Below the pieces are notes generated by a model. It made no database searches and was not told the DNA's origin. It was given only the letters and a program-made list of their open reading frames with translations. Of a DNA stretch of 64,000 bases, positions 1-61,224 are shown one piece after another (within the stretch, counting starts at the first letter, position 1; every line of letters begins with the position of its first letter). The stretch is from an uncultured Bacilli bacterium (GTDB lineage: Bacteria > Bacillota_I > Bacilli_A > RF39 > UBA660), in contig CAKOQK010000002.1 in assembly GCA_934101225.1 (NCBI GenBank), positions 40,633 to 104,632 on the forward strand. Direction: 5' to 3'. A program made the translations under genes and the position numbers.

Positions 1-221
1 AATGCAAAAATAATAATTGGCTGCAAAAAAATAGCAATTATTGGACTATGTCATCTAGTTCTTCTGATAATAGAATGGTTTTTCATGAATATTTAAAAGG
101 AGATATCAATAGTAGTTGGGCAAATACGAATTTAGCAACTTTTCCATCACTTTATCTAACAAGAGGTGCAAAAATTATTAATGGTGCAGGTACAAGTAAT
201 AATCCATATAAACTAGGGTAA
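1..221 (+). CDS. C-terminal end of an ORF cut by the window edge (72 codons, ...NYWTMSSSSSDNRMVFHEYLKGDINSSWANTNLATFPSLYLTRGAKIINGAGTSNNPYKLG*)
   Basis: Frame 3 is open from position 3 to TAA at 219-221. It is absent from the ORF track because no start codon lies in the window. Family not recognised with certainty. Confidence 0.4.
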   Translation, partial: CKNNNWLQKNSNYWTMSSSSSDNRMVFHEYLKGDINSSWANTNLATFPSLYLTRGAKIINGAGTSNNPYKLG

Positions 222-293
222 TTTTAAATTAAATGGCTCTAGTTTTTTTCTATTCTTTATTATAAAATAAACATGTAGTAGGGAAGTGTAATT

Positions 294-1112
294 ATGCCAG
301 AGTTACCAGAAGTTAGAACAGTAGCAAAAGTATTAAAAGAAAAAATAATTGGAAAGAAAATAACAAGTTATCAAATTAGATATCAAAATATAATAGAAAA
401 TGGAAGTTTAAGTTTTGATAATCTAATTAATAAAACAATATTAGATATAACAACTTATGGAAAATATTTAATATTTAAAATAGATAATCTTTATTTAGTG
501 TCACATCTTAGAATGGAAGGAAAATACTATATTAAAAATATTAAAGCTGAAATAAGCAAACATGAGCATATTATATTTATTTTAGATAATAATATTTCTT
601 TAAGGTATCATGATACTAGAAAGTTTGGCCGGATGTTTTTAACTGATGACTTATCTAAGTGTAAGGGATTAAATAAACTAGGACTAGAGCCATTTGATAA
701 AAATATTAATAGTGATTATTTATTATCTAAATTTAATAAAAGTAATTTACCAATAAAAGAACTATTGTTAGATCAAAGTATTATTGCAGGACTTGGAAAT
801 ATTTATGCCAATGAAGTATTATTTTTAAGTAAAATAAATCCCTTTAAAAAAGGAAAAGATATTACTAAAAATGAGTGTGATAATATAATTTCTTCATCTA
901 AAGAAATTTTAACCAATGCGATTATTGATGGTGGAACTACTATTAAAAGTTATACTTCAAGTTTAGGAGTAATAGGACATTATCAAGACAAATTATATGT
1001 TCATAAAAGAGATAATATGAATTGTAAAATATGTAATAGTTTAATATTAAAAGATAAGATTGGCGGAAGAAGTACTTATTATTGTCCTAATTGTCAAAAA
1101 GAAAGTAAGTGA
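294..1112 (+). CDS. mutM: Formamidopyrimidine-DNA glycosylase (Fpg/MutM)
   Basis: N-terminal MPELPEV catalytic motif. C-terminal CxxC...CxxC zinc finger (CKIC...CPNC). Length of 272 aa is typical. Confidence 0.9.
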   Translation: MPELPEVRTVAKVLKEKIIGKKITSYQIRYQNIIENGSLSFDNLINKTILDITTYGKYLIFKIDNLYLVSHLRMEGKYYIKNIKAEISKHEHIIFILDNNISLRYHDTRKFGRMFLTDDLSKCKGLNKLGLEPFDKNINSDYLLSKFNKSNLPIKELLLDQSIIAGLGNIYANEVLFLSKINPFKKGKDITKNECDNIISSSKEILTNAIIDGGTTIKSYTSSLGVIGHYQDKLYVHKRDNMNCKICNSLILKDKIGGRSTYYCPNCQKESK

Positions 1113-1115
1113 TTA

Positions 1116-2669
1116 ATGAAAACTAATTGTCAAAAACTAAAAAATATTTTAGAGACATACACTGATATTTATATTTTTATAATCTTGTTAATATTTCCTT
1201 TTATAGTTAATAAAGATGGATTCTTTCATATTTTAGAATGTAAATGGTATTCATATTTAATTATTGGAATGACATATTTAACTCTAAACTTAGTAACGTT
1301 ATTATATTTTTATATCTTTAAAAAAGTTAATTATTTTAAAAATTATAAATTATCTAAAGTACAATTATTTGCCATTTCATTATTAATTATTAATATTATA
1401 TCTTGCTTATTATCTCCTTATCTAAAAGATTATAATTTACTTATAGGAGTTGGTAGAGGAGAAGGATTAATAATTACTTCCCTTTATATTCTTTCTTTTT
1501 TAAGCATAGCTTTATTTGGCAAATTTAAAAGAAAATATATTTTATATTTTTCGCTTTTATCAATAATTCATAATGGAATATGTGTGCTTCAATATATTGG
1601 CTTTAATCCATTAAATATGTATCAAAATGGGATTGGAACCCATAATGTAAGTTTTATGGGAACAATAGGTAATATTGATTTTATATCAGCACTTTATTGC
1701 ATCTTAATACCAGTATCTATTTCATCATATCTTTTTCTTAAAGATAATAGTAAAAAAGAAAATATTATTCATTTAACATCAATATTTTTATCATTCTTTA
1801 TTTTAGGTATTATAAATGTTCAAAGTGGTAAACTAGCCTTATTAATAATGCTTATGTTAACTTTTCCTTTAATTATCAAAAATAACCAAAGATTAAGTAA
1901 ATTTCTTATCATATTATCATTAATATTGATGGCATACTGCACCAATATCATATTAAATCCCGAGTATCATTACGACATTAATAAACTAGGACTTTATTTT
2001 AAATTTAATTATATTGTTATATTGTATTTAATTGTTATTTTTATATTAATTTATTTATCAAAAGTTTTAAAAAATACTAACTACAATATTTTAAATGATA
2101 AAAAGTTAATTAAATATTATTTTATTGGAATATCTATTTGTGGAATATTTGGAATAATTATTATATATAATATAAATTTTAGTAGTGGGTTTTTATATGA
2201 AATTCATGAATTATTACATTTAAATTTTGATGAAGAATTTGGAACATATAGAATATTCTTATGGAAAAGAACTTTAAAGTTAGTAAAAGATTATCCTTTA
2301 ATAGGAACAGGGCCAGATACCTTTGCATTAAGGTTTATGGCAAAGTATACTGAAGATATTAAAGCAATTGGCCCTTTAACAATTAATGATACAGCAGCCA
2401 ATGTTTATTTAACAACTTTAATAAATTTAGGAGTAATTGGTCTTTCTAATTATTTATTATTAATGTTTTCATTATTAAAAAAAGGATTAAAAGAAATGAA
2501 TAATTATTCTAAAATATTGTTACTTGCTTTTATTTGTTATCTAATTCAAGATTTTTTTAATCTTTCAGTTGTAATAGTAAGTCCAATATTTTGGCTATTA
2601 ATAGGAGTTTTATACATAAGTTTAAATGCTGACAAATTAACTTGTAAAAAAGGAATAAAAACAATATAA
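1116..2669 (+). CDS. O-antigen ligase / Wzy_C family polytopic membrane protein
   Basis: Many hydrophobic segments. The motif GTYRIFLWKRTLKLVKDYPLIGTGPDTF resembles the conserved loop of the WaaL/PglL/WsaB-type family. Confidence 0.65.
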   Translation: MKTNCQKLKNILETYTDIYIFIILLIFPFIVNKDGFFHILECKWYSYLIIGMTYLTLNLVTLLYFYIFKKVNYFKNYKLSKVQLFAISLLIINIISCLLSPYLKDYNLLIGVGRGEGLIITSLYILSFLSIALFGKFKRKYILYFSLLSIIHNGICVLQYIGFNPLNMYQNGIGTHNVSFMGTIGNIDFISALYCILIPVSISSYLFLKDNSKKENIIHLTSIFLSFFILGIINVQSGKLALLIMLMLTFPLIIKNNQRLSKFLIILSLILMAYCTNIILNPEYHYDINKLGLYFKFNYIVILYLIVIFILIYLSKVLKNTNYNILNDKKLIKYYFIGISICGIFGIIIIYNINFSSGFLYEIHELLHLNFDEEFGTYRIFLWKRTLKLVKDYPLIGTGPDTFALRFMAKYTEDIKAIGPLTINDTAANVYLTTLINLGVIGLSNYLLLMFSLLKKGLKEMNNYSKILLLAFICYLIQDFFNLSVVIVSPIFWLLIGVLYISLNADKLTCKKGIKTI

Positions 2670-2697
2670 TTAAATTGTAAAGTAGAGGAGTTTGAAA

Positions 2698-4323
2698 ATG
2701 AAAAAAGATAAAATATTAGAATTAGTTATAGGTGGAATTATTATATTCTCTGTAGGGATATTTATAGGTTATAAATTAAATAGTGGTGCAATAAAAAATA
2801 TTCAAGGCTATCTATTTAATGCTAGCGGATTTGCAACTGATCCAAATGCGACTGATTGTAACGCAACAGATAGTAATGCGACTGACAGTAATGCGACTGA
2901 TAGCAACGCTACTGATTCCAACGCAACAGATAGTAATGCCACTGATTCCAATGCAACTGACAGTAATGCTACAAGTTCAAATGCATCTATAAATGATAAT
3001 ATTTTAATTTTATCTAGTTTTTATTTAAAAACAACTACTGGTAAAACTGGTGAAAAAATATATGTTAATTTACAAACTCAAGGAACAACTAATACTGGTG
3101 CATCTGTATCTTTTAAAAGTACAAAGGGATACACCTTTACAACAAGTATTTATTCAATAAATAATAATCCTTACATTATAATTCCTAACAATATTCTTCC
3201 TGATACTTATAATGTAACAGATTTATTATTAACTGGTTTAAATAGTGATTATACAACATTTACTAAACATTATGGTCAAAATGGTAATTTTAACTATACA
3301 TTCAGTTCAAAATTAATTATCAGTTCTGAAAATAAAACCAATATAAAATTAAATAGCTTCACTTTAAAAACTAATAAAGCCAATATATCAGATAAAGTAT
3401 ATTTCGATATTCAAACAAGTGAAAAACTAACTAATTTAAAATTAGAATTAAAAGGAAGTAACAATACATTTACTGTCTATGCTGCTTCTTTAAATAATAA
3501 TCCATATTTTGAAATTCCTTCTAATAGTACTGAAGGAAAATATATACTAACTTCATTAACTTTAATAAACAATGATAACACCGTAATATATACAAATAAT
3601 GGAAATAATGGAACATTAAAATATGTATTTAATTCTTATTTAGAAATAACTAATAATAGTAATAAAAAACATGTTTATAATAATGAAGATATTGATACAA
3701 CTGTTATATCTAAGTTATATGAAAGTGATAAAAATTCTGAAATAGCTATAAATGCTAATGAAAATAGTTTTATAAGTAGTGAGTTATTTAACATTATAAA
3801 AGGAACTAATAGAACTCTTAAAATAAATAATAATGATAATGAATTAATTTTTAAAGGAAATGATATTAAAGAAGCTAAAACAATTGATGTTAATACTAAA
3901 GTTTATTTAACTGAAGTTAACAATAACATTAATGAAATAGTAAAAAAGGGAATTATAATAGATTTTCCTGATAATGGTTCATTACCTGGAAATGCTTTAG
4001 TTAAGATTAAAAATAATGATGATATTAAAAAGGTTTTAGATAGTAAAGTAAACGTTTATTATTATAATGATAAAACTAATAAATTTAGATTAATAAGTAG
4101 AGGAATAACTTTAACTGAAGATTATTATGAATTTAATATTTCACATACATCTAGTTATGTTTTAACTAATGAAGAAATAGATAAAAAATATTTAGAAACA
4201 AATGAAAATGTAGTAAATTTCCAAAAAAGTAATAAAGTAAATTTACTTCTAATTGGAGCAGGAGTTTTAGTTATAATTGGAACAACTTGTCTAATAATTT
4301 TTATTAAAAGAAAAAATAAATAA
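2698..4323 (+). CDS. Membrane-anchored surface protein with an ATDSN pentapeptide repeat stalk, two internally duplicated ~110-aa domains and a C-terminal TM anchor
   Basis: ATG at 2698 follows GGAGG at 2684-2690; the track starts at TTG 2692. N-terminal hydrophobic segment. Paired domains FYLKTTTGKTGEKIYVNLQT... and FTLKTNKANISDKVYFDIQT.... C-terminal LLLIGAGVLVIIGTTCLIIFIKRKNK. Confidence 0.7.
   Translation: MKKDKILELVIGGIIIFSVGIFIGYKLNSGAIKNIQGYLFNASGFATDPNATDCNATDSNATDSNATDSNATDSNATDSNATDSNATDSNATSSNASINDNILILSSFYLKTTTGKTGEKIYVNLQTQGTTNTGASVSFKSTKGYTFTTSIYSINNNPYIIIPNNILPDTYNVTDLLLTGLNSDYTTFTKHYGQNGNFNYTFSSKLIISSENKTNIKLNSFTLKTNKANISDKVYFDIQTSEKLTNLKLELKGSNNTFTVYAASLNNNPYFEIPSNSTEGKYILTSLTLINNDNTVIYTNNGNNGTLKYVFNSYLEITNNSNKKHVYNNEDIDTTVISKLYESDKNSEIAINANENSFISSELFNIIKGTNRTLKINNNDNELIFKGNDIKEAKTIDVNTKVYLTEVNNNINEIVKKGIIIDFPDNGSLPGNALVKIKNNDDIKKVLDSKVNVYYYNDKTNKFRLISRGITLTEDYYEFNISHTSSYVLTNEEIDKKYLETNENVVNFQKSNKVNLLLIGAGVLVIIGTTCLIIFIKRKNK
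2833..2988 (+). repeat. About ten tandem 15-bp units encoding (A-T-D-S-N)n
   Basis: The units read directly as gcaactgatccaaat / gcgactgattgtaac / gcaacagatagtaat / gcgactgacagtaat / gcgactgatagcaac / gctactgattccaac / gcaacagatagtaat / gccactgattccaat / gcaactgacagtaat / gctacaagttcaaat. Confidence 0.9.
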
Positions 4324-4339
4324 GAACTGTTAAAATAAA

Positions 4340-4939
4340 CTAACAGTTCTTTTCACATATTGAAATAACATAGTTATCATATATAAAAGAATAACATTTA
4401 ACATTTATATCACTACAATAAATATGATTGTTACTAATTGTAAATTCAACATTTTTAATATCAAATATACTTTTTCCCATCATTTTAATATAAGCTTCTT
4501 TTAAAGTATAAATTTCAAATAATCGTTTAAATAGATTATTATCTTCTAATAAAATATATTCTTTTTCTTTATTACTAGCAAAATAATTAATAGATTTAAT
4601 ATTAGTTTCTCTAATTTTTTCAATATCAATACCTATTTCTTTATCAGAAACAACAGTTATAACATAATTAGAAGAATGACTTATATTATAGAATATATTT
4701 TTGCTAACAATAAAAGGTTTATTATTTTTATTAAATTTGAATTCTAAGTTATTATAGTTAAGATTATAATATTTATTTAATAAGTTACTTAAAAGAATTT
4801 CCCCAATAATTGATTGTTTTACTTTAAGTTCATTCTTAAAATTATTAATTCTTTTTTTCTTTTCAATATAAATATTATTATAAAAATTATTAATCTCATT
4901 ATCACTATAATCATTAATATTTTTAATTATATACTTCAT
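4340..4939 (-). CDS. 4'-phosphopantetheinyl transferase, Sfp type
   Basis: GIDIEKI and LKEAYIK(M)G motifs, about 200 aa, divergent from a carrier-protein operon. Confidence 0.7.
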   Translation of the reverse strand: MKYIIKNINDYSDNEINNFYNNIYIEKKKRINNFKNELKVKQSIIGEILLSNLLNKYYNLNYNNLEFKFNKNNKPFIVSKNIFYNISHSSNYVITVVSDKEIGIDIEKIRETNIKSINYFASNKEKEYILLEDNNLFKRLFEIYTLKEAYIKMMGKSIFDIKNVEFTISNNHIYCSDINVKCYSFIYDNYVISICEKNC

Positions 4940-12171: not shown

Positions 12172-12894
12172 ATGAAATTAGTAGATTTAAATTCATTAGA
12201 TAGTGAAAAAACATATTATCATTTTACACCTAGATATAATTTTGAGAGTATATGTGAAAAAGGACTTTTAGCTAAAATTGGTAGTAATGCGAATGGTATT
12301 GAAAAAACACCTAAAGTGTTTTTTGCTATTGGAAATTTAGGGTTTCTTAAAATATGTGATGTATGGATAAATTGGTTTATTTATAAAATTGCTTTATATG
12401 ATAATGTACTTAAATATAAAGATATTTCAATAGATGAAAAAATTAATTTAAAAAGACAATTTAAAAATAGATTTATAAAAGGTGCTTTTTATAGTGATGA
12501 TTATATAATAAAGGCATTTGAAATGATGAGACATGAGTTAGAAAATGATATTATGTTTAAATTAAATTTAGATGAAAGTGATTATGATTTAAATGATATT
12601 GATGAAGCAAAATCAAATGAAAGAGAAGAGTTTATTAATAGAATGTATCTTGGGAATATAACAAGTTTAGATAAAGTTGAGTCATTTAACATGCATACGA
12701 AGAGTAATCTTGGAATTAATAATGATAAAATAGAAAAAATTATTTGTGAAAATAATGATTCTGCTTTATACATATTAAAAGAAATATATAATAAAGAAAA
12801 ACAAAATAATATGAATTTAAAGTTTGTTTTTCTTGATAAATTTATAGAATATGTATATGGTTTAAATTTAAATATTAAATCTCAAAGGATGTAA
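12172..12894 (+). CDS. Hypothetical cytoplasmic protein (240 aa)
   Basis: Long ORF with coding-like composition. No motif I can name. Confidence 0.5.
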   Translation: MKLVDLNSLDSEKTYYHFTPRYNFESICEKGLLAKIGSNANGIEKTPKVFFAIGNLGFLKICDVWINWFIYKIALYDNVLKYKDISIDEKINLKRQFKNRFIKGAFYSDDYIIKAFEMMRHELENDIMFKLNLDESDYDLNDIDEAKSNEREEFINRMYLGNITSLDKVESFNMHTKSNLGINNDKIEKIICENNDSALYILKEIYNKEKQNNMNLKFVFLDKFIEYVYGLNLNIKSQRM

Positions 12895-12975
12895 AATATA
12901 GATTTAATTTATTTATTCTTTTAGTTTATTTATTATGATGATTTTGCTAAAATAAATGAGTAAGGAGTGATCTAA

Positions 12976-13689
12976 GTGGAAAGATTACAAAAAATAATTG
13001 CCGAATCAGGTTTTACTTCAAGAAGAAAAGCTGAAGAATTAATAAAAGAGGGAAAAGTATATGTAAATGGGGTTAAGGTTACTGAGTTAGGTACAAAAGC
13101 AAGTTTTGGAGATTTAATAGTTGTTAATGGAGTAACTTTAAATAAAGCAGATTATGTTTATTTTTTATTAAATAAACCAAGAGGAGTTATATCATCAGCA
13201 GCAGATGATAAAAAAAGAAAAACAGTTGTTGATTTAATTGATACAGATAAAAGAATTTATCCTATTGGAAGATTAGACTATGATACTACTGGTTTATTAT
13301 TGCTTACTAATGATGGAGAACTTACAAATATTTTAACTCATCCTAAAAATAAAGTTCCAAAAAAATATGTTGCAAAATTAAATAAATTTATGGATATTGC
13401 TGATTTAAAAAAATTAGAACAAGGAATTGATGTTGAGGGTCGAAAATGTGTTCCAACAAGAGTTAAATTAAAGAAAAATGATGCTATTAAAAATTACGCT
13501 ATTGTTGAAATAACTATTATTGAAGGAAGAAATCACATTATTAAGAAAGTATTTGAAAACTTAGGATACTTAGTAGATAAATTAACAAGAGTAGAGTATG
13601 CATTTTTAAATGTTGATAAATTAAAAAGTGGTGAATATCGTAGTTTAACTATAAAGGAAGTAAAAAAACTTTATGAATATAAAAATTGA
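12976..13689 (+). CDS. rluB: Pseudouridine synthase, RsuA/RluB family, with S4 RNA-binding domain
   Basis: GTG start after AAGGAG. S4 motif SRRKAEELIKEGKVYVNG. Catalytic motif GRLDYDTTGLLLLTNDG. Confidence 0.85.
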   Translation: MERLQKIIAESGFTSRRKAEELIKEGKVYVNGVKVTELGTKASFGDLIVVNGVTLNKADYVYFLLNKPRGVISSAADDKKRKTVVDLIDTDKRIYPIGRLDYDTTGLLLLTNDGELTNILTHPKNKVPKKYVAKLNKFMDIADLKKLEQGIDVEGRKCVPTRVKLKKNDAIKNYAIVEITIIEGRNHIIKKVFENLGYLVDKLTRVEYAFLNVDKLKSGEYRSLTIKEVKKLYEYKN

Positions 13690-14854
13690 AAAGTATAATA
13701 ATCAAGGTAGAGGAATTGGTTATTTAAATAAAAAAATAATTTTTGTACCTAACACGATTATTGGAGAAACAGTAGAAATTGAAATAGTAGAAGAAAAAGA
13801 TAAATATATGGTAGGTAAGGCAATAAATGTTATAAGTCCTTCAACTATAAGAATTAAAAGCAAGTGTCCTTATTATGATAAGTGTGGTGGATGTGAATTT
13901 ATGCATTTATCAATAGATGAAGAACTAAGAATTAAAACTAATATATTAACCGAGTTATTAAAAAGAAATAATATAGACGTACCTAAAATTAATGTAATCC
14001 AAAGTAATAATAAATATAATTACCGTAATAAAGTAACTTTAAAAATAGTTAATAATGAATTTGGTTATTATAATTCGGGAACTCATAATTTTACTAAAAT
14101 AGATTATTGTTATCTTGCTAAAGATTCTATTAATAATATAATTAAAAGTTATAATTTATTTAAAGTATCAAGTGGAGAAATAACTATTAGATCTAATTAT
14201 AATGATGAAATATTAATAAAGATAACTAGCAATGAAAAAGTAGATGTTGATATTGAAAAGTTAATTAATGATAATAAAATAGTTGGAATTATTGTTAATG
14301 ATAAGGTTATTTATGGGGAAAATGATTATATAGAAAAAGTAAATAATTATTTATTTAAAGTTAATATTAATTCCTTTTTTCAAGTTAATTTAAATATATT
14401 AGAAAAAATAGAGAAGATATTACATGCTAAAAAATATCATAATGTGGTTGACTTATATTGTGGTGTTGGTACTCTTGGAATGTTTGTTAACAAAGATAAA
14501 TTATATGGTATTGAAATAGTTAAAGATGCTGTTATTAACGCTAGTGTTAACGCTAAAATAAATAAACAAAATAATATGTATATGTTAGGTGATTCTTCTA
14601 AAATATCTAAAATAAATAGTGATATAGATTGCATAATTATTGATCCACCAAGAAGTGGATTAAATAAAGAAACTATGAAAAATATTGTAACTATTAAACC
14701 AGATAATTTAATATATATGTCTTGTAATCCATTAACATTCGTTAGAGATATGCAAATATTAAATAAGATATATAACGTAGATGAGTTTTACTATTTAGAG
14801 ATGTTTCCTAGAACAAAACATATGGAAGTACTTTGTACATTGAAGAAAAAATGA
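13673..14854 (+). CDS. rlmCD: 23S rRNA (uracil-C5)-methyltransferase, RumA/RlmCD family
   Basis: TRAM-like N-terminus. Fe-S Cys cluster CPYYDKCGGCEFMH. SAM motif DLYCGVGT. DPPRSG. Catalytic SCNP. Confidence 0.8.
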   Translation: MNIKIEKYNNQGRGIGYLNKKIIFVPNTIIGETVEIEIVEEKDKYMVGKAINVISPSTIRIKSKCPYYDKCGGCEFMHLSIDEELRIKTNILTELLKRNNIDVPKINVIQSNNKYNYRNKVTLKIVNNEFGYYNSGTHNFTKIDYCYLAKDSINNIIKSYNLFKVSSGEITIRSNYNDEILIKITSNEKVDVDIEKLINDNKIVGIIVNDKVIYGENDYIEKVNNYLFKVNINSFFQVNLNILEKIEKILHAKKYHNVVDLYCGVGTLGMFVNKDKLYGIEIVKDAVINASVNAKINKQNNMYMLGDSSKISKINSDIDCIIIDPPRSGLNKETMKNIVTIKPDNLIYMSCNPLTFVRDMQILNKIYNVDEFYYLEMFPRTKHMEVLCTLKKK

Positions 14855-14967
14855 AATATCAAAAATATTTATAAGATTGTTTGAGTATGACATGAACACG
14901 ACTCTAATATAAATGGTATTTGAAAACATATATTAATTAAAAATTAATTTGAGGGGATGTAGTATAT

Positions 14968-15994
14968 ATGAATGCAAATTTAATTGGAAATGAAAATAAT
15001 ATTATATTTTATGAAGATGAAGCGGGAAATTCAAAAGTAGAAGTTGTTTTGAAAGAAGATAATGTTTGGTTAAATGCTAATGCGATTGCAAATTTATTCA
15101 ATGTTCAAAGGCCTGCAATTGTAAAACATATTAATAATATATATAATGATGAAGAATTAGATAAAAATTTAACTTGTTCCATTTTGGAACAAGTTCAACT
15201 TGAAGGAAATAGAAAAGTTTCAAGAAAAAAAGACTTTTATAATTTAGATATGATTATTTCCATTGGGTTTAGAGTTAATTCCAAAACTGCAATAAAATTT
15301 AGAACTTGGGCTAATAAAATAATAAAAGAATATATGGTAAAAGGATTTGCCTTAAATGATGATAGATTTATTAATGGTAATAGATTTGATACAAGATATT
15401 TTGATGAATTATTAGAACGTATAAAAATAATTCGTACAAGTGAAAGAATGGCTTATCAAAAAATCACAGATATTTTTATTACAACTAGGTGTTGATTATG
15501 ATAAAAAATCTGAAGATGCTTATACCTTCTTCAAAATAGTTCAAAATAAATTACACTATGCCATTACCGGACATACTGCTGTAGAACTTATTTATGAAAG
15601 AGTTAGTAGTGAAAAAATACATATGGGACTTACTAATTGGAAAAACAGTCCTGATGGATTAATTTATAAATATGATGTTGGAATAGCTAAGAATTACTTA
15701 AGCGAAGAAGAATTAAGAAAATTAAATAATTTAACAACATTATTTTTAGATTATGCCGAGGATATGGCAGAAGAACAAAATATAATGACAATGCAAAAAT
15801 GGATAGATATAACTGATAAACTACTTTCTTTTAGAGATAAGAAAATGTTGAAAGATTCTGGTAAAATATCTCATAAACAAGCTTTAGAAAAAGCAGAAAA
15901 TGAATATGAAAAATTTAGAATAAAGCAAGATAGAGAATATATTTCAAGCATGGATGAAATGTATAAAAAATATTTAGAAGAAAATCAAAAATAG
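14968..15994 (+). pseudogene. RhuM-family virulence-associated protein disrupted by a frameshift near 15487
   Basis: Two overlapping ORFs (14968-15495 and 15440-15994) together are collinear with RhuM proteins (FYNLDMIISIGFRVNS, FRTWANKIIKEYMVKGF, YFDELLERIK.IR.SE). The frames join at ...ITDIFITT / GVDYDKK.... Confidence 0.7.
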
Positions 15995-53794: not shown

Positions 53795-55711
53795 GTGATT
53801 TTAATGCTTCATTATCGTATTCATAAAAGAATGTATTACGTGTATTTTACTGTCTTAATAACTTTTTTAGTAATAATTTTAAGAGTATTTTATCTTCAAG
53901 TATTTAAAGTAAATAATATAAAAGATAAGGCCAATAGTCTATGGAGTCGTAATTTACCAATTCTTGCTGATAGAGGTAAAATAACTGATCGTAATGGCAT
54001 AGTTCTTGCTGATAATTTAACAACAACATCTCTAGTAGTAATACCAGTTCAAATTCAAAATAAAGAAGAGGTTGCTAAAAACTTATCTGAAATACTAGGA
54101 ACAACATATTTAAATATTTATTCCCATTTAACCAAACATACCTCAATTGAAAGAATTCATCCTGAAGGAAGAAGATTATCATATGATATTGCAGAAAAAA
54201 TAAATAATTTAAATTATGATGGAGTTTATTTACTTAAAGAATCTAAAAGATATTATCCATATGAATCATTACTTTCCCATGTTTTAGGATATGTTGGTAT
54301 AGATAATCAAGGTTTATCTGGAATTGAACTTGAATACGATAAGTATTTAAAAGGTAATGACGGAGGTATATTATATTATTCTGATGGTAAAGGAAATCGT
54401 TTAAATTTATCTGAAGTTTATGATGAACCTGTTAATGGCAATAATATTTCTTTAACGATAGATATAAATATTCAAGAAGCTGTTGAAAAAGAATTAGATA
54501 ATGTAGTTACAAAATATAATCCAGATAGTACTTTAGCCTTAGTTATGGATCCAAATAGTGGAGAAGTTCTTGCTATGTCATCTCGTCCAAACTTTGATTC
54601 TAATAATTATAAAAATTATGACTTAGAGACTATCAACCGAAATTTACCAATATGGATGACTTATGAACCCGGTTCGACTTTCAAAATTATAACTCTATCT
54701 AGTGCTATAAATGAAGGAAAAGTAAACTTATTTGATGATCATTATTATGATGGTGGATCAATTCAAGTTGAAAATGCCCGAATTAAATGTTGGAAAAGAG
54801 GAGGTCATGGTTCTGAAACCTTTTTAAACGTCGTAGAAAACTCTTGCAACCCCGGTTTTGTCGTACTAGGTCAAAGATTAGGTACTGAAACTTTATATTC
54901 ATACTTAGAAAAATTTGGTTTTGGTAAAAAGACCGGAATTGATTTAAATGGTGAAGCCAGCGGTATCATGTTTAAATTATCTAAAATGGGACCAGTTGAA
55001 ACTGCAACAACCGCTTTTGGTCAAGGTATAAGTGTAACACCTATTCAACAAGTAACGGGAGTATCAGCCGCTATTAATGGTGGAACATTATATAAACCTT
55101 ACATAGTTAAATCAATAAGTGAACCTGAAACAAATAATGTAATTGTTCTTAATAAAAAACAAGTAGTTAGAGAAAATATCGTAACAGAAGAAACTAGTAA
55201 CTTAGTCAGATTTGCCCTTGAAAGTGTAGTTCAAAATGGTACTGGTAAAAATGCCTATATTGAAAATTACCGAGTAGGTGGTAAAACCGGAACAGCCCAA
55301 AAAGTTAAAGATGGTAAATATATGGTTGGTAATTATATTGTTTCATTTATTGGTTTCTTACCAGCTGATAATCCTAAATATGTAGTCTATGTTGCAGTAG
55401 ATAATCCAAAAGGTATCACTCAGTATGGTGGGACAGTTGCCGCACCTATTGCTAAAAATATTATGCTAAGTATTATAGATAGCCAAAATATACCAAAAGT
55501 AGAAACAGATAGAGCTAGAGAATATACATGGCTAGATACTAAATATATTAAATTACCAGATGTTACAGGAAATGATTTAGATACTGCTAAAAAATCTTTA
55601 AAAGGATTTAAAATAGAATACTCAGGAAGTGGTGAAAAAGTAATATCTCAAATGCCAGAAGGAAATACTTTTGTAAAAGAAAATAGCATCGTTAAAATAT
55701 TATTAGATTAA
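53795..55711 (+). CDS. Class B penicillin-binding protein (FtsI/PBP2B/SpoVD family) with a single C-terminal PASTA domain
   Basis: STFK (SxxK), SCN (SxN) and KTGT motifs. The PASTA segment is KLPDVTGNDLDTAKKSLK.... The start may be ATG at 53804. Confidence 0.85.
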   Translation: MILMLHYRIHKRMYYVYFTVLITFLVIILRVFYLQVFKVNNIKDKANSLWSRNLPILADRGKITDRNGIVLADNLTTTSLVVIPVQIQNKEEVAKNLSEILGTTYLNIYSHLTKHTSIERIHPEGRRLSYDIAEKINNLNYDGVYLLKESKRYYPYESLLSHVLGYVGIDNQGLSGIELEYDKYLKGNDGGILYYSDGKGNRLNLSEVYDEPVNGNNISLTIDINIQEAVEKELDNVVTKYNPDSTLALVMDPNSGEVLAMSSRPNFDSNNYKNYDLETINRNLPIWMTYEPGSTFKIITLSSAINEGKVNLFDDHYYDGGSIQVENARIKCWKRGGHGSETFLNVVENSCNPGFVVLGQRLGTETLYSYLEKFGFGKKTGIDLNGEASGIMFKLSKMGPVETATTAFGQGISVTPIQQVTGVSAAINGGTLYKPYIVKSISEPETNNVIVLNKKQVVRENIVTEETSNLVRFALESVVQNGTGKNAYIENYRVGGKTGTAQKVKDGKYMVGNYIVSFIGFLPADNPKYVVYVAVDNPKGITQYGGTVAAPIAKNIMLSIIDSQNIPKVETDRAREYTWLDTKYIKLPDVTGNDLDTAKKSLKGFKIEYSGSGEKVISQMPEGNTFVKENSIVKILLD

Positions 55712-55801: not shown

Positions 55802-56992
55802 ATGAGATGTATTTTAATGAATAAAAATAACGAAGTATTACTTACGGAATATGACTCAGCAAGTAGTACATTTACTAAAATTTATGAAGTTTACAATATT
55901 GAATATGCACCATATATTTTAAAGAATCTCTACAATGAAAAAGATTTTAATGATAATTCTTTTAGAATAAATCTAAGTAAATGGTTTCAAGGTCGTGGAA
56001 TACCATCATGGCGTGATAAATTAGATATTCTTTTACATAGATTAAACATAATTGCTCCAAGCGAGCTACTTGATAAATCTTTTGGACTATCACTATCAGA
56101 TCAGTACTGGTTAAAGCCCATTAATACAAGTATTTCGTATGATGATATAAACTTTTTTGATAATGACTTTGATTATACTGAATTCTTAGAAGCATCACTA
56201 TCTAAAAATAGTAATTCAATTGTTAATGCATCATCTTTAAACACACCAAATAATACAACTGATGGAATGCTTAGAAAAGCATGGATTATTGAAAACGGTA
56301 TAAGATATTTATTGAAATCAGGATATAAAAATGAGTTATTACAACCTTTTAATGAGGTGCTAGCTAGTGAAATATGCGACCGTTTAGGATTTGATCATGT
56401 AAAATATACATTAGATACTTATAAAGATACAGTTGTATCCAAATGTCCATGCTTTATAACTAAGAATACTGAATTAATTACATGTCATCAAATTAGAAAT
56501 AATATGGATAGGTATGATAGTACTAAAGACTATGAAGAATATATAAAAATTCTTGAAGAGCATGGAATAATTGATGCTAGAACTCAAATGGAAAACATGT
56601 TCATCTTAGATTTCTTAATAATGAATGAAGATAGACATTTAAATAATTTTGGAATTATAAGAGATGTGAATACTTTAAAATGGCTTAAATGTGCACCAAT
56701 ATTTGATAATGGTCAAAGTTTAAACACCCTCTATTATGATGAAAATGAATTACATAATAGTGGCGAGGGAAGATTCTTTTACGAAGTTAAACCATTTGAT
56801 GAAATAATTAAAATTGTTAAAAATTTAAAAAGAATTGATATAGATAAATTAAATGATTTACCAGAATGGTTTGATAACTTATTACATCAATATCAGAATC
56901 TTACCAATTTTTCTGATACAAGAATAAACAAATTATGTATTATTTTGAATAGACAAATAAATAAATTAAAAAAATTAATTGCTGAACAATAA
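55802..56992 (+). CDS. HipA_C-domain Ser/Thr kinase-like protein
   Basis: The catalytic-loop-like motif MNEDRHLNNFGII, and the upstream motif LSLSDQYWLKP typical of this Firmicute HipA-like family. Confidence 0.6.
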   Translation: MRCILMNKNNEVLLTEYDSASSTFTKIYEVYNIEYAPYILKNLYNEKDFNDNSFRINLSKWFQGRGIPSWRDKLDILLHRLNIIAPSELLDKSFGLSLSDQYWLKPINTSISYDDINFFDNDFDYTEFLEASLSKNSNSIVNASSLNTPNNTTDGMLRKAWIIENGIRYLLKSGYKNELLQPFNEVLASEICDRLGFDHVKYTLDTYKDTVVSKCPCFITKNTELITCHQIRNNMDRYDSTKDYEEYIKILEEHGIIDARTQMENMFILDFLIMNEDRHLNNFGIIRDVNTLKWLKCAPIFDNGQSLNTLYYDENELHNSGEGRFFYEVKPFDEIIKIVKNLKRIDIDKLNDLPEWFDNLLHQYQNLTNFSDTRINKLCIILNRQINKLKKLIAEQ

Positions 56993-57022: not shown

Positions 57023-57053
57023 TTGACACTCCACCTAACTGGAGTGTTATTAT
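57023..57053 (+). promoter_or_regulatory. MerR-type promoter with a 19-bp spacer containing a dyad operator
   Basis: TTGACA (57023-57028), 19-nt spacer, TATTAT (57048-57053). Inverted repeat ACACTCCA (57026-57033) / TGGAGTGT (57040-57047). Confidence 0.75.
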
Positions 57054-57076: not shown

Positions 57077-57493
57077 ATGAATAATTTATATAAAATAGGA
57101 GATTTTTCTAAAATAGTTAATTTACCAATAAAAACTTTAAGATACTATGATGAGTACGGATTATTAAAGCCATCATATGTTGATGAATTTACTGGTTATC
57201 GTTATTACAATGAAGCTAATATAAGTGAATGCAAATTAATAATATTACTAAAATCATTAGATTTTACTTTAGAAGAAATATCAAATTGTAAAGATAATTT
57301 AACAGCGGAAGTTATTAATACAAAAATAAAAGAAATAAACGATAAAATAGACTTATTAACTAAAAAACAAAAAATGTTAATGATTATCGAACAAGAACTT
57401 TCAAATGTAAAAGATAAATCTCAAAATATCCAAACAAACAAACCAAAAGTTTTAGTTCTAACCCCAAATAAAGATAATAATATAGCAGCTTAA
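57077..57493 (+). CDS. MerR-family transcriptional regulator (short form)
   Basis: N-terminal motif YKIGDFSKIVNLPIKTLRYYDEYGLLKP, then a coiled-coil dimerisation helix. Confidence 0.85.
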   Translation: MNNLYKIGDFSKIVNLPIKTLRYYDEYGLLKPSYVDEFTGYRYYNEANISECKLIILLKSLDFTLEEISNCKDNLTAEVINTKIKEINDKIDLLTKKQKMLMIIEQELSNVKDKSQNIQTNKPKVLVLTPNKDNNIAA

Positions 57494-57536: not shown

Positions 57537-59288
57537 ATGGAAAAAGATAAAAAACATTTATATAAAAATTTTATAAAAAATGCCAAGATAACTTTAAAAT
57601 ATTCAAAAAATTATAAAGGAACATTATTAACAATATTAATTATTAATCTTATAGTTTCTGGAATTGGATTTGTTACTCCTATTTTATCTGCAAAATATAT
57701 TTCCTACTTAACAAATGGATTATTTAATAATCTTTTATATATAATTATAGTTCAAACGATAACATATATAGTCAGTATATTTTTAAGATTAATATCAAGT
57801 AAAATGAATCGTTACTATGATTTTAAAATAAAAAGAAAGTTACAATTAGAACTTACTAGAGCAACTTTAACTATAGATCAAAATATTTTAAATAAAGAAA
57901 ATAGTGGAACCTTTATTGAAAGAATTAATGGTGCTACTAATTTATCTTCCAGATTAATACGTATTGCTGAAAGTATATTTAATTTATTAGGAGATTTGGG
58001 AGTTTTAATAGTTGTGATTAATCTTGATTTACCGATTGGAATAGCTTATACAATTTTAATGTTAATAAGTGTATTATATGATAAATATTCTGATAACGTT
58101 AGTTATAAAAATGGTGAAAAGGTTTATAATTTAGTTGATAAAACTAGTGGATTTATTTCGGAAATTGTTAGAGGAACTAAAGATATTAAAATTCTTAATG
58201 CTGAAGAATCATTTTTAGAAGAAGCCGATAAATATATGAATAATGCTAATACTGTAAGATTAAAATCTAATATCACAGATGAAAAACTATCAACAATTTC
58301 TTCAATAATAAGTGAATTATCAAAATTATTAATTGGTTTAATAATAGTTTATGAATTAATGAATGGAAATTTAAGTATTGAATCTGCCTTAATTATATAT
58401 AATTACAAAGGCAATATAAGCTGCCTTAAATCTGATTTATCATCTATTCATTTTTGGATAAGTAATTTTGTATTAGATTCTAATCGTACATATGATATTC
58501 TAGATGATAATAAATTTCCTAAAGAAAAATTCGGAAATAAAAACCTATCTAAATTTAAAGGACATATTGAATTTAAAGATGTTAACTTCTCATATGAAGA
58601 AAATATACCTGTATTAAAGAATTTAAATTTAGAAGTATTACCAAATGAAGTAGTTGGTTTTGTTGGCCCATCGGGAGCTGGTAAAAGTACAATCTTTAAT
58701 TTAATAAGTGCTTTAAATAAACCAGATAGTGGTGAAATCTTATTTGATGGAGAAAATATTAATGAATTAACCAAGGATTCAATAAGAGGTAATCTATCAG
58801 TAATAAGTCAAAATGCCTATATATTTAATATGAGTATAGAAGACAATTTAAGAATAATAAAGAAAAACGCTACTAAAAAAGAAATTGAAAAAGCTTGTAA
58901 AATGGCATGTTTAGATGAATTTATCGAAAGCTTACCAAATAAATATAAAACAATAGTAGGAGAAGGCGGTGTAACATTATCAGGAGGACAACGCCAAAGA
59001 ATAGCAATAGCAAGAGCACTATTATTAAATACTGAAGTATTATTATTTGATGAAGCAACAAGTAGTTTAGATAACACAACCCAAGAAAAAATCCAAAAAG
59101 CAATTGAAAACTTAAAAGGAAAATACACAATACTGATAATAGCCCATCGATTATCAACTGTTATAAATTCTGATAAAATATATGTTATAAATAAAGGGAC
59201 TGTAGAAGGTGTAGGCACGCATAAAGAATTATTAAAAACTTGTAAAATATATGCTGACTTATATAAAAATGAAGATAATAAAAATTGA
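57537..59288 (+). CDS. ABC exporter, fused permease/ATPase (type I exporter half-transporter)
   Basis: Six-TM N-terminal domain. Walker A GPSGAGKST, signature LSGGQRQR, Walker B LLFDEATS, H-loop IAHRL. Confidence 0.9.
   Translation: MEKDKKHLYKNFIKNAKITLKYSKNYKGTLLTILIINLIVSGIGFVTPILSAKYISYLTNGLFNNLLYIIIVQTITYIVSIFLRLISSKMNRYYDFKIKRKLQLELTRATLTIDQNILNKENSGTFIERINGATNLSSRLIRIAESIFNLLGDLGVLIVVINLDLPIGIAYTILMLISVLYDKYSDNVSYKNGEKVYNLVDKTSGFISEIVRGTKDIKILNAEESFLEEADKYMNNANTVRLKSNITDEKLSTISSIISELSKLLIGLIIVYELMNGNLSIESALIIYNYKGNISCLKSDLSSIHFWISNFVLDSNRTYDILDDNKFPKEKFGNKNLSKFKGHIEFKDVNFSYEENIPVLKNLNLEVLPNEVVGFVGPSGAGKSTIFNLISALNKPDSGEILFDGENINELTKDSIRGNLSVISQNAYIFNMSIEDNLRIIKKNATKKEIEKACKMACLDEFIESLPNKYKTIVGEGGVTLSGGQRQRIAIARALLLNTEVLLFDEATSSLDNTTQEKIQKAIENLKGKYTILIIAHRLSTVINSDKIYVINKGTVEGVGTHKELLKTCKIYADLYKNEDNKN
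58513..59283 (+). repeat. Direct repeat copy 1 (NBD-coding block)
   Basis: Identical to 60314-61084 except at 5 positions (59133, 59135, 59162, 59198, 59210). Confidence 0.95.
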
Positions 59289-59339
59289 TTAATATATAAA
59301 ATATGATAAAATTAGATTGAGTGTAAAAGAGGTATATAT

Positions 59340-61092
59340 ATGAAAAAAATTAAAGATTTTAATGAAATAATTAGTAATTTTATAAAAATATATAAATATA
59401 ATAAAAATACCAAGAAAAATATAATTAAAGCAGTAATTATTGATTTGATAATTATAATTATTTATTTTCTTTATCCTTTAATAATTGCAAAATCTCTTCT
59501 TGCACTATCTAATAATAAATTAAATATTTTATTAATTATGGTAATGGTGTTATTTGTAATAGATTCGGCAGATTCTTTATTAAAATACCTTTTTTCAATC
59601 ATTTTTAATAAAATAAACTATCAAATTAAAAAGAATATTCAATTGGAATTAATTAGTGAAAGCCTTAAAATAAATCAAAGTACTTTAAATCAAACATCTA
59701 GTGGAATTTTAATTGAAAGAATAAATAATGATACTAATAATTTAGCAAAAAACATAACAAATTTACTAGATTTATTAATGTTCCTTATTAGGAAGAATTG
59801 GACTTATATTTGCAATATGTGTGATAAATATTTATGTTGGTTTATTATATATTTTCTTTATTGTTATGGTTTTATTATTTAACAATTACTCTTACAAAAT
59901 TAATTACAAGAATAATCAAAAACAAAGAGAAAATAGGGATAAAACTGGTGGTTTTGTTTCAGAAATTATTAAGGGAACAAAAGATATAAAGATTCTTAAT
60001 GCAGAAAAATCATTTTTAAACAAAACAGGAGAATATATTGATGATGCCAATAAAATAAATTATGAATATGAAGTTGAAAGAAAAAAATTATATTCAATTA
60101 TGCTATTTATAAAATCATTGGGTGATTTTGCTTCCGGTTTACTTATAATATTTTTAATATATAAAAATGAATTAACAACTGAAGCAGCTTTAATTTTATA
60201 TAATTATAGTGGTTCTGTTCAAAGTATTACTTATACTTTATCTAATTTATCAATCACAATCAACGATTTTAATCTATCATGTAATCGTATTTTTGGTTTA
60301 TTAGGAAGTGAAGAATTTCCTAAAGAAAAATTCGGAAATAAAAACCTATCTAAATTTAAAGGACATATTGAATTTAAAGATGTTAACTTCTCATATGAAG
60401 AAAATATACCTGTATTAAAGAATTTAAATTTAGAAGTATTACCAAATGAAGTAGTTGGTTTTGTTGGCCCATCGGGAGCTGGTAAAAGTACAATCTTTAA
60501 TTTAATAAGTGCTTTAAATAAACCAGATAGTGGTGAAATCTTATTTGATGGAGAAAATATTAATGAATTAACCAAGGATTCAATAAGAGGTAATCTATCA
60601 GTAATAAGTCAAAATGCCTATATATTTAATATGAGTATAGAAGACAATTTAAGAATAATAAAGAAAAACGCTACTAAAAAAGAAATTGAAAAAGCTTGTA
60701 AAATGGCATGTTTAGATGAATTTATCGAAAGCTTACCAAATAAATATAAAACAATAGTAGGAGAAGGCGGTGTAACATTATCAGGAGGACAACGCCAAAG
60801 AATAGCAATAGCAAGAGCACTATTATTAAATACTGAAGTATTATTATTTGATGAAGCAACAAGTAGTTTAGATAACACAACCCAAGAAAAAATCCAAAAA
60901 GCAATTGAAAACTTAAAAGGAAAATACACAATATTAATAATAGCCCATCGATTATCAACTGTAATAAATTCTGATAAAATATATGTTATAAATAAAGGAA
61001 CTGTAGAAGGCGTAGGCACGCATAAAGAATTATTAAAAACTTGTAAAATATATGCTGACTTATATAAAAATGAAGATAATAAAAGTAAATAA
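59340..61092 (+). pseudogene. Second ABC exporter half-transporter, interrupted by a +1 frame change at about 59779-59785
   Basis: ORFs 59340-59882 and 59821-61092 are collinear with the upstream paralog. The second frame is open from 59779 (SLLGRIGLIFAICVINIYVG...). Confidence 0.7.
60314..61084 (+). repeat. Direct repeat copy 2 (NBD-coding block)
   Basis: Offset of 1801 bp from copy 1. Compared base by base by eye. Confidence 0.95.
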
Positions 61093-61224
61093 TAATTAAA
61101 ATAAAACGGCTAAATTAAATGTCGTTTTTTATTTAGACTACCACTTGAAATTTATTCTTTAATTTGCTACAATTATTTTACGTTGAAAAGAACTTTTGTT
61201 TTAATTTAGAAAGAAGGAAAATTT

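Follow-up and report, generated by a model that had tools for sequence, protein, structure and literature searches.

We analysed a stretch of 64,000 nucleotides (nt) from an uncultured gut bacterium of the Bacilli with a small genome, hereafter called the window, in which two adjacent genes for ABCB-type half-transporters, abc1 and abc2, carry almost the same nucleotide-binding domain (NBD) joined to two different transmembrane domains (TMD1 and TMD2). The window corresponds to positions 40633-104632 of contig C2 in a metagenome-assembled genome (MAG) of 1.34 Mb, 49 contigs and 25% GC, which is labelled G000 here. Comparison with related assemblies indicates recurrent gene conversion, apparently confined to the ATPase-coding part of the two genes, and not one recent event. 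It is very probable, in our judgement, that the state of the locus is explained by this NBD-restricted conversion together with repeat-mediated deletion of TMD2 and inactivation of abc2.

The two copies of the repeat were compared exactly, base by base. Copy 1, at 58513-59283 on the forward strand, covers the final linker residues and the entire NBD of abc1 (57537-59288, same strand), an intact gene for a half-transporter of 583 amino acids (aa) composed of TMD1 and the NBD. Copy 2, at 60314-61084, codes for the NBD of the paralogous gene abc2 (59340-61092, same strand), which carries TMD2. Each copy is 771 nt long, the offset is 1801, and 766 of the 771 positions are identical. The five mismatches, located at 59133, 59135, 59162, 59198 and 59210, fall into four codons and are all synonymous. 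They are confined to 78 nt, which has a probability of about 5e-4 under a uniform spread, and the initial 620 nt are without a difference. This block is the most identical long internal repeat of the 1.34-Mb genome. Its 3' border is located 5 nt before the stop codon of abc1, and on the 5' side of 58513 the identity at the same offset drops to about 30-69% per 100 nt. When intact copies are aligned, the identity is about 33-36% for the TMD proteins and about 50% for the third codon positions, which is saturated in a genome of 25% GC, and the protein identity steps from about 33% to 100% at F327. The original prediction, made from the letters of the window, had listed the same 771-bp block with these five differences and an identical first 620 bp, had called all five synonymous and had described the proteins as only distantly similar upstream of the block. 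Our exact comparison and codon check agree with it in full on these points.

Within the otherwise diverged TMDs, an island at 58137-58251 and 59938-60052 showed 79% identity in DNA and 60% in protein. It covers the motif GF(I/V)SEI..GTKDIKILNAE, and we take it to be the intracellular loop 2 (ICL2), or coupling-helix, region, which contacts the NBD. This island probably reflects protein constraint rather than recent conversion, because its third-position identity (63%) is only mildly raised. The spacer of 51 nt between abc1 and abc2 was compared with the region 5' of abc1 for a trace of a whole-gene tandem duplication, and no homology above shuffles was found between these two segments (418 of 500 shuffles reached the same score or better). 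A switch of the invertible or phase-variable type was also considered for this locus and ruled out; the repeats are direct and the operon is without a recombinase.

The exporter cassette was present in 8 of 24 genomes of the genus (labelled G###), and further contigs and assemblies (labelled L###) were fetched by exact protein look-up, i.e., L039, L040, L086, L087 and L088-L090. Most of the assemblies compared were short-read MAGs, and the related records, all human-gut MAGs, carry the labels uncultured Bacilli, uncultured Tenericutes (UMGS1661) and Bacillales UBA6331. Both genes were complete in G004, G011, G020 and G009. The contigs of G015 and G012 end in copy 2, exactly 77 and 55 nt past the final copy-distinguishing site, as expected where a true repeat breaks a de Bruijn graph at these k-mer lengths (k=77, k=55), and the contig of G007 ends inside copy 1. 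L039 and L040 came from two projects and are identical over 9.1 kb, L086 is a contig of 1.19 Mb (contig_6105), and L087 is a SPAdes node of 343 kb. Both borders of the block were identical in G004, G011, G020, G009, G015, G012, L039, L086, L087 and L088-L090, and every assembly holding both genes showed the same last mismatches upstream and the same 3' end. In the relatives, abc2 is intact and codes for 582-584 aa. More distant homologues were found in Mycoplasma sp. CAG:956, Clostridium sp. CAG:710 and Coprobacillus sp. CAG:605. The related genera have a single homologue each, at other, non-syntenic loci, and therefore these homologues do not date the duplication.

Although the borders are constant, the content of the block is not. 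Over about 770 sites, the two copies within one genome differed at 4 sites in L087, 5 in G000, 9 in G011, 10 in G020 and G009, 16 in G004 and 19 in L086, and in the upper range at 33 sites in L089 and L090, 39 in L088 and 43 in L039. In seven of nine lineages, the exceptions being L088 and L039, copies within a genome differed at 4-19 sites, whereas copies from different genomes differed at 12-45. Among G000, G004, G011 and G020, 26 sites vary between genomes yet match in both copies of each, and no site was fixed as specific to copy 1 or copy 2. The true pairing of copies gave the minimum summed distance among 120 permutations (82, against a mean of 138), and 300 of 903 pairs of informative sites failed the four-gamete test. 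The sites splitting the two copies of L039 appeared in other genomes as lineage-specific mosaics, alike in both copies. Copy 2 of L086 was nearest to copy 1 of G004 (11 differences) and was 18-41 differences away from any copy 2. All 19 copy differences within L086 are synonymous, with identical stretches of 231 and 159 nt between them. Nearly all differences in the block are of this kind, e.g., the copy 1s of G000 and L039 are separated by 26 synonymous changes and by 0 non-synonymous ones. Protein-level selection as the cause of the within-genome identity was ruled out because the identity reaches synonymous sites. Recombination left a maximum-likelihood tree of the block and outgroups with almost no resolution, and site patterns, distances and permutations were used instead.

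The similarity of the paralogues, the absence of copy-specific sites and the mosaic alleles support the intra-operon conversion of the NBD parts that had been proposed from the window. On the other hand, the sharp 5' boundary, which had been read there as the mark of a conversion tract, is better described as a fixed homology border common to all related lineages, inside which conversion recurs. It had also been considered that the same pattern in all relatives would speak for an ancient fusion design. The pattern is indeed present in the relatives, but the design is not static, with a copy divergence ranging from 0.5% to 5.6% and with shuffled alleles. One founding event appears to have fixed the borders, and conversion would then have acted episodically within them.

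The repeat, its borders, the co-varying copies, the mosaic alleles, the single-gene forms and the frameshift in abc2 are observed directly, and from them we infer the following mechanism. The TMDs of the two colinear paralogous half-transporters would have diverged long ago (about 35% identity), and recurrent RecA-type ectopic gene conversion between the tandem direct repeats would keep the NBD part 94.4-99.5% identical. This part ranges from codon F327 to 5 nt before the stop, and conversion would halt at both of its borders because the flanks are too diverged to pair. The latest tract in G000 would cover at least 58513-59132, with the five older differences left at the 3' edge. Crossing-over between the same repeats would remove TMD2 and leave a single hybrid gene, consisting of TMD1 and an NBD with a copy-2 tail, a form that many strains of the population carry. 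The abc2 of G000 is, in addition, inactivated by an insertion of 1 nt in TMD2.

Single hybrid genes were found in many assemblies, and the earlier suggestion that the repeat is a substrate for deletion of the intervening 1.8 kb is borne out by them. A search started from abc2 gave about 75 protein clusters of the TMD1 type, of which about 50 ended in NKSK, the C-terminus of copy 2, and not in NKN, that of copy 1. Six contigs carrying one such protein have the order SpoVD-like penicillin-binding protein (PBP) gene, merR, single hybrid gene, RNase J gene and ruvAB, and among them are two contigs from Logan (k=31), one of 286 kb from JGI and a SPAdes node of 280 kb. In a MEGAHIT contig (k=141), the same hybrid precedes rpsB-tsf, with the copy-2 tail and flank of that lineage, and L101 provides a third downstream context. 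These single-gene genomes are real, because repeat-blind assemblers cannot pass from TMD1 through the NBD into the flank if a TMD2 branch exists. The hybrid genes look like the expected products of crossing-over between direct repeats. As a separate observation, scaffold L100 (ERZ28614431 scaffold_25780, positions 1-4659) contains three TMD2-NBD units in a row, whose NBD blocks are 100% identical and of which the first two have a copy-1-type tail, and represents either amplification by unequal crossing-over or an assembler loop.

Several points weigh against this explanation. The copy 2s of L088 and L039 have 8 copy-2-specific alleles in common, and they differ from one another at 30 sites, fewer than the 39-43 at which each differs from its own copy 1. 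In these two lineages an older paralogue divergence of about 5.5% seems to survive, which would have been erased elsewhere, and conversion accordingly appears episodic and not universal. At six sites, L088 has the alleles X/Y, L089 X/X and L090 Y/Y, a pattern that is possibly an assembly artefact. These three were not relied on as direct proof of bidirectional conversion; an assembler with k=55 could collapse the 97-nt cluster. Recombination between strains also shapes the locus and blurs the counts of independent events. Parsimony, and not proof, favours a change from two genes to one. The copy differences that survive in the short-read assemblies are all chained to the edge of the block by gaps shorter than the k-mer, and the identity of the interior may be inflated by bulge collapse or by double threading of one graph edge. 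The count of five differences in G000 may for this reason be an underestimate; the near-identity itself is not in doubt. The assignment of L086 as a long-read assembly is from its name and size alone.

An extra T at 59781-59782 (ATGTTCC, against ATGTCC in every relative aligned) causes a +1 frameshift in G000 and splits abc2 into two open reading frames (ORFs), 59340-59882 and 59821-61092, which are colinear with the intact genes of the relatives. The original prediction for the repeat had not named this split. The insertion is absent from the six related species aligned and from L087, whose abc2 differs from that of G000 by 23 substitutions, and both frame halves are otherwise open. It is located in TMD2, outside the converted block, and therefore cannot be repaired by conversion. 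Instead of a mutation, the frame change could be an error in the MAG consensus or a site of programmed +1 frameshifting, as would fit a single extra base in a draft assembly with no other damage visible in abc2. We consider this unlikely, but it keeps some weight. The site lies outside any homopolymer run, many strains can do without abc2, and the frame of abc2 is uninterrupted in all other assemblies, which therefore have no conserved recoding site. Programmed frameshifting at 59781 was rejected on the ground that the shift occurs in no relative.

The direction of change at the locus could also be reversed. If the single-gene form were ancestral, a spacer-TMD2-NBD unit would have been inserted, and the repeat would be the scar of this insertion and not the source of deletions. 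The single-gene forms are many and widespread, and the related genera have just one homologue, as expected from such a history. However, the copy-2-type stop region and flank were found in at least two downstream contexts (RNase J and rpsB), which deletion explains directly and insertion would explain only by repeated events. Moreover, it is TMD2, and not TMD1, that scores consistently higher against the single genes of the other genera, and those homologues are not syntenic. An ancestral single gene is therefore improbable to us, and we prefer deletion from the two-gene form.

Another possibility is that the block goes back to a single partial duplication or NBD replacement in the ancestor of the clade, without later exchange, and that the copies are merely young. 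The identical borders everywhere indicate a single founding of the homology block, the paralogues diverge by at most 5.6%, a value close to the largest orthologue divergence in the clade, and L088 and L039 keep their common copy-2-specific alleles. A history of this kind is very improbable, since paralogues that differ at 4-19 sites beside orthologues that differ at 12-45 are impossible without exchange, no copy-specific site is fixed across genomes, and the proximity of L086 copy 2 to G004 copy 1 and the extensive mosaicism also contradict it. That the near-identity is an assembly artefact, with truly diverged NBDs or one gene only and a second copy built from a collapsed or re-used graph edge, would suit a MAG in 49 contigs, surviving differences that are all edge-anchored with gaps below typical k and the three identical units of L100 (as from a looping assembler), but it can practically be dismissed, because the same borders occur in more than 10 independent assemblies from varied projects and assemblers, the same pipelines resolve copies that are 5% apart in L039 and L088 (identically in two projects for L039 and L040), the 1.19-Mb contig L086 is still 97.5% identical with interior differences included, most of the 26 co-varying sites are spaced by less than 77 nt and would not be collapsible if they were true paralogue differences, and diverged NBDs would leave contigs of their own, none of which was found in the G000 genome.

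The Pfam models ABC_membrane (PF00664) and ABC_tran (PF00005) match abc1 and both pieces of abc2, and the relatives of abc1 in the PDB by sequence are ABCB1/ABCB4, PCAT1, TM288 and MsbA. No named equivalog (MsbA, CydDC, bacteriocin exporter and others) could be assigned; the NCBIfam matches are far under the curated cut-offs, e.g., 298 against 602 bits for MsbA. The motifs of the shared NBD are all canonical (GPSGAGKS, SQ, LSGGQ, LLFDE, SLD and AHR), the two NBDs are identical in protein, and no degenerate ATP site was found in abc1 or abc2. A classical asymmetric ABC pair is present elsewhere in G000, on contig C12 (about 12409-15691). Its subunits are about 30% identical and its degenerate ATP site has a Walker B E-to-D change (IYIFDD) and an H-loop H-to-Q change (IVAQR) in one subunit, and ISIGQ in place of LSGGQ in the other. 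abc1 and abc2 were not conserved jointly; TMD1-only strains are common, and abc2 is frameshifted in G000. Because the shared NBD is canonical, the related genera have a single homologue, abc1-only strains exist and abc2 of G000 is broken, we infer that abc1 works as a homodimer, with abc2 as an accessory paralogue. Each of the two proteins would be able to form a homodimer, with a single kind of motor domain in common. Heterodimers of abc1 and abc2 are possible and would not be required. The original prediction had started from the premise that paired genes normally encode heterodimers with diverged NBDs, which probably does not apply here; the single-gene strains and the frameshift suggest that the first gene alone suffices.

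The TMD1 segment (57537-58512) occurs in two allele classes that are about 87% identical in DNA, the G000 type and the G020/G009 type, and G007 is at 91%. Within the G000 class, the segment is 99.2-99.8% identical across species whose flanks differ by 3-7%, which suggests that it spread recently between lineages by recombination. The abc1 of G007/UBA6331 (L035/L050, 2892-4489) has two in-frame stops, a 1-nt indel just past the start and a 13-nt deletion in the NBD, and its contig ends within the NBD. Either this copy is decaying or it is poorly assembled.

Among known exporters, homodimeric ones (MsbA, Sav1866 and BmrA/LmrA) resemble the abc pair in size, fold family and canonical ATP sites, whereas abc1 and abc2 are two tandem genes with different TMDs and one NBD sequence. 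In MsiK/MsmK-type systems, one separate ATPase gene serves several ABC importers. The abc pair is similar in that one motor sequence is combined with different membrane modules, but the motor is fused to each TMD and is kept uniform by recombination. The asymmetric heterodimeric exporters (TM287/288, BmrCD, LmrCD, EfrCD and PatAB; PMC4997860, PMC9541285) are likewise encoded by adjacent ABCB-type genes with fused TMD and NBD in one operon, and TM288 is among the nearest solved half-size relatives of abc1. They differ in having diverged NBDs and one degenerate ATP site, whereas the NBDs of abc1 and abc2 are alike and canonical and one partner is dispensable.

Among published prokaryotic cases, mtrA-1/mtrA-2 of methanogens (Wang et al. 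2015, G3, PMC4632066) come nearest to the abc pair. According to the parts of that report considered here, these genes are also tandem operon paralogues, in which the soluble catalytic domains are homogenised by long-lasting conversion and the membrane-anchoring parts differ. Unlike the abc pair, they code for archaeal methyltransferase subunits, their homogenisation is reported over a far longer time, and repeat-mediated loss of a copy does not appear in those parts of the description. Concerted evolution of duplicated bacterial genes, of the tufA/tufB type, likewise leaves paralogues closer than orthologues, including synonymous sites, through recombination (PMC6053082), whereas the homogenisation of the abc genes is limited to one gene domain. 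That survey, which deals with concerted evolution in prokaryotes, makes no mention of ABC transporters. In TLR1/TLR6 (PMC2077338) and KLRC/NKG2 (PMC3210942), as far as the portions of these reports considered here describe it, conversion keeps one domain alike and the other diverges, but these are tandem receptor genes of vertebrates for different proteins. In a full-text literature search, no bacterial ABC exporter was found for which concerted evolution restricted to the NBD is described. Tandem repeats are well known from textbooks to undergo ectopic conversion and unequal recombination, and the locus is a clear example of these processes and not a new mechanism.

As a natural example, the locus shows how recombination in one domain may keep the ATP motor of two pumps uniform as the substrate-handling halves diverge and one pump is lost. 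It also serves as an annotation warning that neighbouring ABC half-transporter genes are not always obligate heterodimers, and short-read MAGs will break, collapse or skip such loci. The pair offers a simple system to ask whether identical NBDs allow mixed dimers. A more speculative view, which we hold to be doubtful, is that the NBD block acts as a fixed homology arm and the TMDs as exchangeable cassettes that would be lost (as in the single-gene strains), possibly amplified (L100) and moved between strains, with a uniform motor that would let the TMD types form homo- and heterodimers freely. If true and general, this could be a mode in which ABC exporters evolve that has not been described until now, and selection, not neutral recombination alone, would maintain it.

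The locus is a MerR-controlled operon, merR-abc1-abc2, with both abc genes adjacent behind one MerR-type promoter. This promoter, at 57023-57053 on the forward strand, was read from the sequence as TTGACA, a 19-nt spacer with an 8-bp dyad (ACACTCCA/TGGAGTGT), which was also a match in the hairpin scan, and then TATTAT. The gene for the MerR-family regulator (57077-57493, forward strand) starts with ATG at 57077 and has Pfam matches to MerR_1 and MerR. It codes for 138 aa, as in the gene calls of all related contigs, and a 156-aa ORF from TTG at 57023 is probably over-extended. The regulator is without a recognised effector domain, and its NCBIfam matches are all below the cut-offs. A MerR helix-turn-helix regulator and an over-long dyad spacer of 19 nt, as in the BmrR/Bmr-like logic of MerR-controlled efflux, are both present, and the promoter type suggests inducible efflux of a compound. 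Downstream of abc2, a terminator-like hairpin (AAAACGGC...GTCGTTTTTT, followed by a T-run; 61104-61135, forward strand) was found by eye and was not reported by the hairpin scan. It is kept in the relatives, both 3' of copy 2 and 3' of the single hybrid gene.

The neighbours of the operon in G000 are the SpoVD-like PBP gene and a HipA-like gene upstream and the RNase J gene downstream. Three downstream contexts were seen by lineage, i.e., RNase J-RuvAB, rpsB-tsf and another gene (61093-61224; L039 9552-9770; L088 5750-5990; L101 4638-4799), and a rearrangement breakpoint is therefore placed immediately 3' of the abc2 stop. The same-genus genomes without the cassette showed no conserved synteny 3' of the PBP gene, and no empty site could be defined in them. 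The HipA_C-like gene (55802-56992), between the PBP gene and merR, was found in G000, G004, L088, L090 and L101 only and was absent from G011, G020, G009, G015, G012, L086 and L087. This gene is patchy across lineages and is therefore an accessory insertion.

The PBP gene (53795-55711) is intact in G000 and is split near residue 350-420 in several same-genus genomes. The two halves are located 4-13 kb apart or on separate contigs (G018:C1:221606-227453, G016:C6:8763-23636, G003, G022 and G005; also L089 1-1658 and L045 1879-3640). In L089 and G011, a gene for a large serine recombinase is located directly 5' of the C-terminal PBP fragment. To judge from this arrangement, the split looks like a skin-type intervening or integrated element inside the gene. 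Finally, merR differs between L088 and L089 by 18 clustered substitutions (locus positions 1748-2014) in otherwise near-identical haplotypes, and this cluster appears to be an allelic recombination tract adjoining the exporter genes.

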